Position numbers and translations under genes: made by a program. Positions 38,171-39,114 of a DNA stretch of 43,067 nt are shown one piece after another. The notes below the pieces were generated by a model. It made no database searches. It was not told where the DNA came from and worked only from the letters and a program-made list of their open reading frames with translations. Position 1 is the stretch's first letter; each line of letters begins with the position of its first letter. Source of the DNA: a virus (taxonomy: Duplodnaviria; Heunggongvirae; Uroviricota; Caudoviricetes); IMG/VR virus record IMGVR_UViG_2657244961_000008, positions 1 through 43,067 of that record; one strand, 5' to 3'.

Positions 38171-38510
38171 TAGCTAACCAACGAAGCTAAGGTTGGTAAT
38201 TAAGGAGTTCTCCACGGGTGAGGTGGAGTGCGTGCGCCGGACACGGGTGAACATCCAGCACAGACAGTTTACTGAAAGGATATTTCCCTGAAAAGTCAGA
38301 CCATAACGCGAAAGCGCACGGCGAGGTAGCTGGTTCATAGATAGCCTGTCGTTAAATTTTCGTCGACCGTGCGCTTCCGGTTGTGGCACTCCGCGAAATG
38401 GCGCGGCGGTAAGTATGGCGGGGTTATTCCTTCCCCGTTGAGGACACCGGGTTGTCAGGTTGACCATACGCTTAAGTGACAACCCCGCTGCAACGCCCTC
38501 TGTTATCAAT

Positions 38511-38563
38511 TTTCTGGTGACGTTTGGCGGTATCAGTTTTACTCCGTGACTGCTCTGCCGCCC
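38511..38563 (+). ncRNA. dicF: DicF small RNA (ftsZ-targeting)
   Basis: TTTCTGGTGACGTTTGGCGGTATCAGTTTTACTCCGTGACTGCTCTGCCGCCC followed by T5 matches the 53-nt E. coli DicF sequence as recalled. Lies directly upstream of dicB. Confidence 0.7.
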
Positions 38564-38737
38564 TTTTTAAAGTGAATTTTGTGATGCGGTGAATGCGGCT
38601 GAGCGCACGCGGAACAGTTAAAACCAAAAACAGTGTTATGGGTGGATTCTCTGTATCCGGCGTTAATTGTTAACTGGTTAACGTCACCTGGAGGCACCAG
38701 GCACTGCATCACAAAATTCATTGTTGAGGACGCGATA

Positions 38738-38926
38738 ATGGAAACGTTATTACCAAACGTTAATACGTCTGAAGGTTGTTTTGAAATTGGTGTCACTATC
38801 AGTAACCCTGTATTTACTGAAGATGCCATTAACAAGAGAAAACACGAACGGGAGTTATTAAATAAAATATGCATTCTTTCAATGCTGGCCCGTTTACGTC
38901 CGATACAAAAAGGATGCTGGCAATGA
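38738..38926 (+). CDS. dicB: cell division inhibitor DicB
   Basis: 62 aa METLLPNVNTSEGCFEIGVTISNPVFTEDAINKRK..., near-identical to K-12 DicB as recalled. GAGGA RBS. The track ORF is extended upstream to 38633. Confidence 0.8.
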   Translation: METLLPNVNTSEGCFEIGVTISNPVFTEDAINKRKHERELLNKICILSMLARLRPIQKGCWQ

Positions 38927-39114
38927 ATACAGCATTTGCACTTGTTCTGACATTTTTTCTTGTTTCCGGAGAGCCAGTTGATATTGCAGTCAGTGTTCAC
39001 AGGACAATGCAGGAGTGTGTGACTGCAGCAACCGAACAGAAAATTCCCGGTAACTGTTACCCGGTCGATAAAGTTATTCACCAGGATAATAACGAAATCC
39101 CGGCAGGATTTTAA
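38923..39114 (+). CDS. ydfD: YdfD-like small membrane/lysis protein
   Basis: 63 aa MNTAFALVLTFFLVSGEPVDIAV..., matching K-12 YdfD as recalled. ATGA overlap with the dicB stop. Confidence 0.7.
   Translation: MNTAFALVLTFFLVSGEPVDIAVSVHRTMQECVTAATEQKIPGNCYPVDKVIHQDNNEIPAGF

Follow-up and report, generated by a model that had tools for sequence, protein, structure and literature searches.

Does the long untranslated stretch that precedes the small RNA (sRNA) DicF hold a functional part of its own? We examined this question in a viral sequence of 43,067 nucleotides (IMG/VR record IMGVR_UViG_2657244961_000008, Caudoviricetes; the whole stretch is called the window below), in which positions 38171–39114 hold a 340-nt untranslated stretch, DicF, and the short genes dicB and ydfD. 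An earlier annotation made from the letters of this DNA (the sequence-only reading) had placed a 53-nt DicF with a T-run at its 3′ end upstream of a 62-aa DicB-like and a 63-aa YdfD-like open reading frame (ORF), within an operon resembling the early-left (pL) operon of lambdoid phages. The dicBF operon has been under study since 1989, and the DicF/DicB/YdfD module is already known, very common, and annotated in sequenced phages. Upstream of DicF in the untranslated stretch, we found a conserved 115-nt RNA domain of four helices that occurs with other partners elsewhere, and this domain is the main subject of this report. As far as could be found, the literature holds no description of it as a unit.

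Identity of the module

The alignment to the DicF covariance model, a check set beforehand, bore out the identification. The cmscan program matched Rfam family RF00039 (DicF) on the plus strand at 38512..38563 with 76.7 bits (gathering threshold 48; E = 2.4e-15), covering the model whole (positions 1–52 of 52) with the terminator hairpin intact. In the cmscan structure line this hairpin has 7 + 4 bp, and it is followed by TTTTT at 38564..38568. With this run, the 53-nt DicF (38511..38563) is identical to K-12 (DH5alpha) dicF (53/53), and its pairing (seed) regions have no mismatch to K-12. Both short ORFs were also borne out, with exact coordinates and with the dicB frame present, by full-family protein matches (Table 1). 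DicB is identical to its K-12 counterpart at 55 of 62 residues, the seven differing residues being mostly C-terminal, and YdfD at 57 of 63. The ydfD start overlaps the dicB stop (shared ATGA), and relatives of YdfD bear the PGAP name “lysis protein YdfD.”

On sequence grounds, the module is the dicBF cassette, an inhibitor of cell division known from E. coli lambdoid prophages, and a chance match is excluded. K-12 DicB exerts a MinC-dependent block of Z-ring formation and inhibits ManYZ (PMC6832061), and expression of K-12 YdfD leads to lysis, with inhibition of IspG also reported (PMC8835842). We consider it highly probable that the window carries a canonical Qin-type dicBF module in an early-left (pL-type) operon, with processing, repression, and toxicity as in K-12.

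The 340-nt stretch (38171..38510) follows ydfC and is identical to the K-12 spacer at 329 positions. It is also spanned by a minus-strand ORF (38174..38509; 111 aa, TTG start), which the sequence-only reading had thought probably not coding. That the stretch is translated as a real gene is very improbable, even though the ORF covers the whole spacer and some phage records annotate hypothetical proteins on the minus strand at the homologous place. The 111-codon frame is kept in only 19 of 92 distinct homologous spacers, is otherwise open in 9, and is broken in 64, the breaks being stops after 1-nt indels within the most conserved part. The ORF has no Pfam match either, and it is noncoding.

A conserved four-helix RNA domain upstream of DicF

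Conservation across the spacer is uneven. Its 5′ part is a variable mosaic (Table 1), whereas the region from ~38350 to 38790 is nearly invariant among relatives. Structure was hard to read from these relatives at first sight: the 128 loci gathered with a DicF 20-mer (a genome-contig scan with this 20-mer gave only 8) form a collection biased to close relatives, and the 82 DicF-anchored sequences given to RNAalifold are too alike for a compensatory pair to show. Folding the whole 405-nt precursor gave a z-score of about −2.2 on both strands and did not tell them apart, and a permissive Rfam scan of 37250..39250 had no match in the upstream spacer.

Covariation was seen once loci were gathered independently of DicF. 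A scan with a 20-mer from the domain gave 149 usable loci, 39 of which lack the DicF 20-mer. In the proposed fold, helix P1 (38380–87/38487–94) closes the domain, P2 pairs 38391–95 with 38402–06, P3 combines 38407–10/38446–49 with 38419–23/38433–37, and P4 pairs 38450–57 with 38477–84. A plain MAFFT alignment of 48 sequences had 96.6% of cells paired, compared with 34–62% when the partners were slid, and contained four compensatory pairs (1/500 shuffles). A model-guided alignment, which adds the P1-like phages and Salmonella phage F1055 and leans towards structure, had 97.1% of cells paired versus 34–62% when slid, with seven compensatory pairs in 24 cells (0/500 shuffles). One further candidate, a compensatory U-A to C-G change in P4 of two loci, was rejected, as the register was off by one and the change amounts to a mismatch plus a wobble. 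U·G and G·U pairs are frequent in helix P1 and have a meaning on the plus strand only, which is a further point against an antisense gene. The domain is nearly invariant among relatives, and the 19-nt loop of P4 and the junction GGUAAGUAUGG are fully so.

We built a covariance model of the domain, R1, which scores 170.5 bits at 38380..38494 and 72–76 bits in phages P1 and P7. Rfam has no match to the domain. R1 found no second copy in the window, the pR operon included; its only other match there has 13 bits (E = 0.73). R1 likewise had no match in Rac-SA53, in Stx phage 75/02, in one Salmonella DicF locus, or in HK022 23000–29500, a stretch that may not include both put sites of that phage.

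The domain is not tied to DicF. BLAST found it without DicF in phage cdtI, in Stx2c phages, in phage 2H10, and in Salmonella phage F1055, and in the loci lacking the DicF 20-mer at least seven other cassettes of the terminator type lie behind it. Some of these join the DicF hairpin to another 5′ pairing region, some keep the pairing region of DicF but have another hairpin, and others are unrelated. A hairpin and T-run follow the domain within 30–100 nt in 92 of 92 distinct downstream contexts (196 loci). In phage cdtI (2433–2640 of the locus) and an Stx2c phage, the domain lies ~345 nt after a pL-like promoter with no N gene annotated, and the terminator-type RNA behind it (TTTGGCGGTACCAG...CTGGTACCGCTCTTTTT) is an unrelated one.

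The domain also occurs in P1-like phages, at ~80% identity. There it begins ~20 nt downstream of the C1-controlled Pban start, and between it and the tRNA genes and ban stands a strong intrinsic terminator. These copies differ from ours in that the closing helix P1 is absent and the terminator hairpin is unrelated to DicF. As the domain of phages P1 and P7 opens the ban operon, right at its 5′ end, an RNase III cut is not needed there. The phage P1 record labels part of the domain a “dicF-like region” (NC_005856 68791..68892), which means that the likeness was noticed long ago, without a structure or function.

In lambdoid pL operons the domain is thus joined to DicF-type, cdtI/Stx2c-type, and at least five other cassettes. 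Taken together, these observations lead us to suggest, tentatively, that DicF belongs to a set of exchangeable 3′ cassettes (seed plus terminator) carried on a shared 115-nt domain, and that this domain is a distinct, previously undescribed functional RNA module.

Predicted RNA processing

In K-12, three DicF species have been described. RNase III generates the 5′ end of a stable 190-nt form, which accumulates when RNase E is inactivated, and RNase E generates the 5′ end of a 53-nt form (PMC10448788). The 3′ end of a 72-nt form results from RNase III cleavage of read-through transcripts (PMC5069750, PMC9438474). The sequence-only reading had taken the 340-nt stretch for a processed precursor. 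Its anatomy supports this and fits the published processing, and it includes features which that reading had missed, namely the structured domain and two duplexes of the RNase III type.

The first duplex belongs to a long hairpin (38306..38379) with a variable top and a conserved base, which was predicted in 14 of 14 alleles folded (the most common of 36). Counting 137 nt (190 − 53) upstream of 38511 leads to ~38374, in the 3′ arm of this hairpin, which is thus the likely place where RNase III cuts to start the 190-nt form. Next, the 5′ end of the 53-nt DicF at 38511 falls in the AUUUUC loop of a small hairpin (38501..38522), in which DicF nucleotides 5–12 are paired. One-sided changes in the small hairpin keep its pairing (U·G to U-A and the reverse).

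The second duplex lies between dicF and dicB. A structured leader there (fold z-score −4.1) is closed by a 25-bp duplex of about −32 kcal/mol, including a 19-nt inverted repeat that is 95% complementary. The 72-nt species is expected to end at 38582, in the 5′ arm of this long-range duplex, and the 3′ arm of the duplex abuts the dicB Shine–Dalgarno sequence (38726–38730). P1-like copies keep the base of the duplex by compensatory changes (GAUGCGGUG/CACUGCAUC vs AUUGCGGUG/CACCGCAAU). The duplex fits the second published RNase III site, if the K-12 lengths apply here.

The leader resembles a known sRNA family. The STnc100 model (RF02076) aligns over its full length to 38561..38770, scoring 35.7 bits (E = 1.3e-5) against a gathering threshold of 47, and by this curated threshold the sequence lies outside the family. 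The same leader stands before kilR in both Rac-SA53 and Stx phage 75/02, and before terB in phage P7, where it is further downstream of the four-helix domain; scores range from 33 to 44 bits, all below 47. In the window, the element lies inside an operon as a leader that RNase III probably cuts, and is not a stand-alone sRNA. A preprint links STnc100 and PasD to prophages and does not mention DicF (10.64898/2026.05.13.724894). In its behaviour the element resembles a structured leader that can be moved among small toxic genes. In Rac-SA53 (1990–2223 of the locus) and Stx phage 75/02 (2001–2287 of the locus), the STnc100-like leader and a DicF-like sRNA, which differs in its 5′ region and scores 41 bits (below threshold), stand directly before kilR, which encodes a division inhibitor, and ahead of recE; the four-helix domain is absent from both.

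Possible functions of the domain

A conserved domain placed between a promoter and an sRNA terminator can be explained in several ways. It may be the stability part of a pro-sRNA: the 190-nt RNA would be a stable, inactive store, with the small hairpin hiding the 5′ pairing region until cleavage by RNase E activates it. This is a tentative reading, consistent with the stability of the K-12 190-nt form and its accumulation on RNase E inactivation (PMC10448788), and with the predicted pairing of 38501–08 to 38515–22, which puts the RNase E site in a loop and sequesters DicF nucleotides 5–12. The domain and terminator of phage P1 would also give a primary transcript of similar size, ~180 nt. However, the masking hairpin is short and rich in G·U pairs, and the invariance of the P4 loop and junction suggests a specific partner instead of bulk stability. 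A second reading is a cis-acting processive antiterminator resembling the put sites of phage HK022, which would let early transcription pass the sRNA terminator to reach dicB through int, or ban in phage P1. We regard this as unlikely. The terminator that follows the domain in every distinct context points this way, as do the placement near Pban, the cdtI leader without an annotated N gene, the lack of an N-like gene between promoter and DicF in the window, and the occurrence of DicF-like terminators without the domain in the 933W-like phage 75/02 and in Rac-SA53. All of this evidence is positional, and the association with terminators is equally expected for a plain sRNA part. Moreover, the pR operon of the window has no copy, Rac-SA53 lacks both N and the domain, and the likeness to put is one of logic only: both are structured nascent RNAs that come ahead of terminators, near the start of an early operon without N. 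The put sites consist of two stem-loops of ~73 nt (PMC9378689), compared with four helices in 115 nt here, and no likeness was found in sequence or, in the HK022 stretch searched, by R1. We also considered a riboswitch-type attenuator and set it aside, as no strand of the domain was seen to compete with the terminator.

It is also conceivable that the domain has no function and that its near-identity reflects recent horizontal spread with DicF, combined with use as a joint at which phage modules recombine. In favour of such hitch-hiking, the loci gathered with a DicF 20-mer are about equally conserved on the two sides of DicF, mosaic breakpoints cluster in the spacer, and RNAalifold saw no compensatory pair in the DicF-anchored set. 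We nevertheless consider this explanation quite improbable. The loci gathered independently of DicF join the domain to at least eight unrelated terminator cassettes and include copies at only ~80% identity in P1-like phages, their helices stay paired through four to seven compensatory changes while the loops remain invariant, and the K-12 counterpart RNA accumulates as a stable 190-nt species. A functional module joined to interchangeable cassettes, for which we argued tentatively above, could represent a new modular class of phage RNA whose 5′ domain controls terminator read-through or gates the release of the active sRNA.

Operon context and the repressor

The window is a lambdoid prophage with tail, head, terminase, lysozyme, and holin genes, IS10, DNA methylase and Q genes, RusA, hok/sok, O/P-type replication genes, cro, a CI-type repressor, and then the dicBF operon up to int. 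The sequence-only reading had described it as intact-looking. The full gene set agrees with that description, but the late operon is interrupted by IS10, which sits between the DNA methylase/Q region and holin. Coordinates of the features are collected in Table 1. Two other Rfam matches were seen outside the dicBF operon: a full-length sok antitoxin RNA (RF01794, 106.7 bits, 31523–31694, minus strand), which marks the hok/sok module in the nin region, and an IS009 match (198 bits, 41–239, minus strand) inside an ORF (1..582) adjoining the tail-fibre region.

Table 1. Features of the dicBF operon and of its surroundings in the window.
Feature	Coordinates	Strand	Evidence and remarks
IS10 transposase	25421..26629		Rfam RNA-OUT at 26622..26691
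CI-type repressor	36594..37241	+	N-terminal helix-turn-helix (P22 C2-like), PF01381 1.5e-12; C-terminal S24-like domain, PF00717 1.6e-10
Intrinsic terminator after repressor gene	37263..37283	+	9-bp stem, then T run; whole feature also given as 37263..37290
pL-like promoter, sigma-70-like	37310..37338	+	Promoter scan; TTGACT-17-TAGATT
Zinc-ribbon gene, ECs_2282 family (RefSeq)	37659..37859	-	Two CxxC pairs; weak zinc-ribbon Pfam matches
ydfC	37952..38170	+	72/72 identical to K-12 YdfC; PGAP name
Variable mosaic 5′ part of spacer	38171..38290	+	Breakpoints recur at ~38191, 38213, 38231, and 38291 among 105 relatives
Long hairpin (candidate RNase III site)	38306..38379	+	Folded alleles; variable top, conserved basal duplex GAAAGCGCACGGCGA / UCG.ACCGUGCGCUUCC
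Conserved four-helix RNA domain, 115 nt	38380..38494	+	5′ domain of the 190-nt “long DicF”
Small hairpin UGUUAUCA/UGGUGACG	38501..38522	+	RNAalifold consensus; 38501–08 pairs with 38515–22
DicF sRNA with terminator U-run	38511..38568	+	RF00039; K-12 identity
Structured dicF–dicB leader	38567..38727	+	Duplex 38567–38591 / 38702–38727 enclosing smaller hairpins
dicB, 62 aa	38738..38926	+	PF05358, E = 1.7e-37, 127.4 bits (gathering 27), residues 1–62/62
ydfD, 63 aa, DUF1482	38923..39114	+	PF07358, E = 7.7e-24, 83.8 bits (gathering 25)
RecE-like exonuclease VIII, 813 aa	39208..41649	+	PF06630, PF16473; next operon gene after ydfD
Excisionase	41702..41980	+	Among PF07825, PF09003, and PF00589 matches of 41702..43067
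Integrase	41949..43067	+	Among PF07825, PF09003, and PF00589 matches of 41702..43067; distal operon end

The placement of the module in a pL-like operon, as originally proposed, agrees with what precedes it. Two operator-like repeats (37290–37306 and 37319–37338, in the region 37290..37339) overlap the promoter and match the OR palindrome at 36511–36530 (AATCTAAGTATTTTTAGATT) between cro and cI. The palindrome AATCTAA-N6-TTAGATT is thus common to the cro/cI intergenic region (36511–36577) and the pL-like promoter (37290–37338), which supports a repressor-controlled pL-type operon. The leader between promoter and ydfC differs from that of K-12: it holds an antisense zinc-ribbon gene, likewise annotated in O157 Sakai, in the place where K-12 Qin has ydfA/ydfB. 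No N-like gene was seen between the promoter and DicF in the ORF list or by Pfam. The recE-like gene has the same position in phage Tritos and in strain TUM9757.

The repressor had been called a cleavable CI-type protein. Its CI type stands, given the helix-turn-helix and S24-like domains and the PDB matches to P22 C2 and lambda cI, but cleavability is uncertain. In the phmmer alignment to lambda cI, the catalytic Ser149 is replaced by Thr (DDTM vs GNSM), the stretch reading FAVSMPDDTM versus the usual ..GDSM, while the Lys is kept (“IKKL” vs “FKKL” in lambda). The catalytic Ser/Lys dyad of self-cleaving S24 (LexA/CI) repressors is thus incomplete in this alignment, though a “VSM” five residues upstream leaves some doubt. 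An Ala-Gly was not seen in the linker sequence, a site that lies outside the lambda cI alignments. Judged from its sequence, the repressor may not be cleavable by way of RecA.

If the operon works as in K-12, the following sequence of events can be proposed. In the lysogen, the CI-type repressor would bind the operators over the promoter and keep the operon off. Upon derepression, a single transcript would run through ydfC, the structured untranslated region, dicF, dicB, ydfD, the recE-like gene, xis, and int, with a fraction of transcription ending at DicF's own terminator. RNase III would cut the conserved stem at 38306..38379 to leave a stable ~190-nt RNA composed of the four-helix domain, a linker, and DicF, from which RNase E would free the 53-nt DicF by cutting the AU-rich loop at 38510/38511. 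The short form, with Hfq, would then repress ftsZ and other mRNAs. On read-through transcripts, RNase III would cut the duplex 38567–91/38702–27, giving the 72-nt species and remodelling the leader beside the dicB ribosome-binding site. DicB with MinC would block Z-ring formation, and YdfD would act as a small lysis protein.

Several points weigh against reading the locus as a K-12-like operon in every respect. The cleavage positions were placed by length arithmetic alone (190 − 53 and 72 nt) on near-identical sequence, and the expression and processing evidence stems from K-12 and is carried over to this strain; cleavage sites, repression, and toxic activities likewise rest on K-12 studies and on calculation from the lengths of the published RNAs. 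The extent to which transcription passes the DicF terminator is in doubt, with a minus-strand zinc-ribbon gene lying between promoter and ydfC and no antiterminator protein evident. In the alignment, the canonical Ser is missing from the S24 domain, which makes the inducing signal uncertain.

Distribution and closest relatives

The 1.3-kb module matches 4,753 of 5,426 complete E. coli genomes (2,692 over at least 80% of its length) and is also found in 60 phage records. From ydfC onward, the window shares its gene order with K-12 Qin, phage Tritos, strain TUM9757, and O157 Sakai. Compared with K-12 Qin (ydfABC-dicF-dicB-ydfDE), the window shares the order ydfC, spacer, dicF, dicB, ydfD, exonuclease. 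DicF and YdfC are identical, the two spacers agree at 329/340 and 173/174 positions, and DicB and YdfD are 89–90% identical. The two prophages differ in the repressor, which is DicA in Qin and a CI-type protein with helix-turn-helix and S24-like domains here, and in the leader, as described above. In addition, Qin is truncated by IS2, whereas the recE-like gene, xis, and int are whole in the window.

The phages Tritos, vB_EcoS-813R8, vB_EcoS-640R1, and PhiR42_1 are 96–97% identical over the 1.3 kb but have other immunity regions. Tritos annotates DicF, dicB, ydfD, exonuclease VIII, xis, and int in this order. In the records of annotated relatives that we examined, the structured 5′ domain is unmarked.

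Some records depart from this pattern. NZ_CM168019.1 and the PPompW/Stx2a phage records carry an additional insertion of ~600 bp with two hypothetical ORFs relative to 37900–38850 of the window, and the match falls into two pieces that span ~1.9 kb (NZ_CM168019.1) or ~1.6 kb (PPompW/Stx2a). Aeromonas jumbo phage AP1 (MT713136.1, 249906–250152) shares ~245 nt with the E. coli dicF–dicB region at 99% identity, which suggests contamination or a chimeric assembly. An E. coli-type dicF locus, at ~93% identity or more, also occurs in metagenome bins labelled Veillonella parvula and Collinsella sp.; this is probably mis-binned Enterobacteriaceae DNA.

Implications

The anatomy of the untranslated region matches the RNA species published for K-12, with two duplexes of the RNase III type at the expected cuts and a covarying 5′ domain between the first of them and DicF. 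The presence of the module in a largely complete prophage adds one more case against the older view that dicBF occurs only in defective prophages. If the domain does have a function of its own, this would explain why the 190-nt form exists, and it would offer a handle on how early operons that lack N pass an sRNA terminator.

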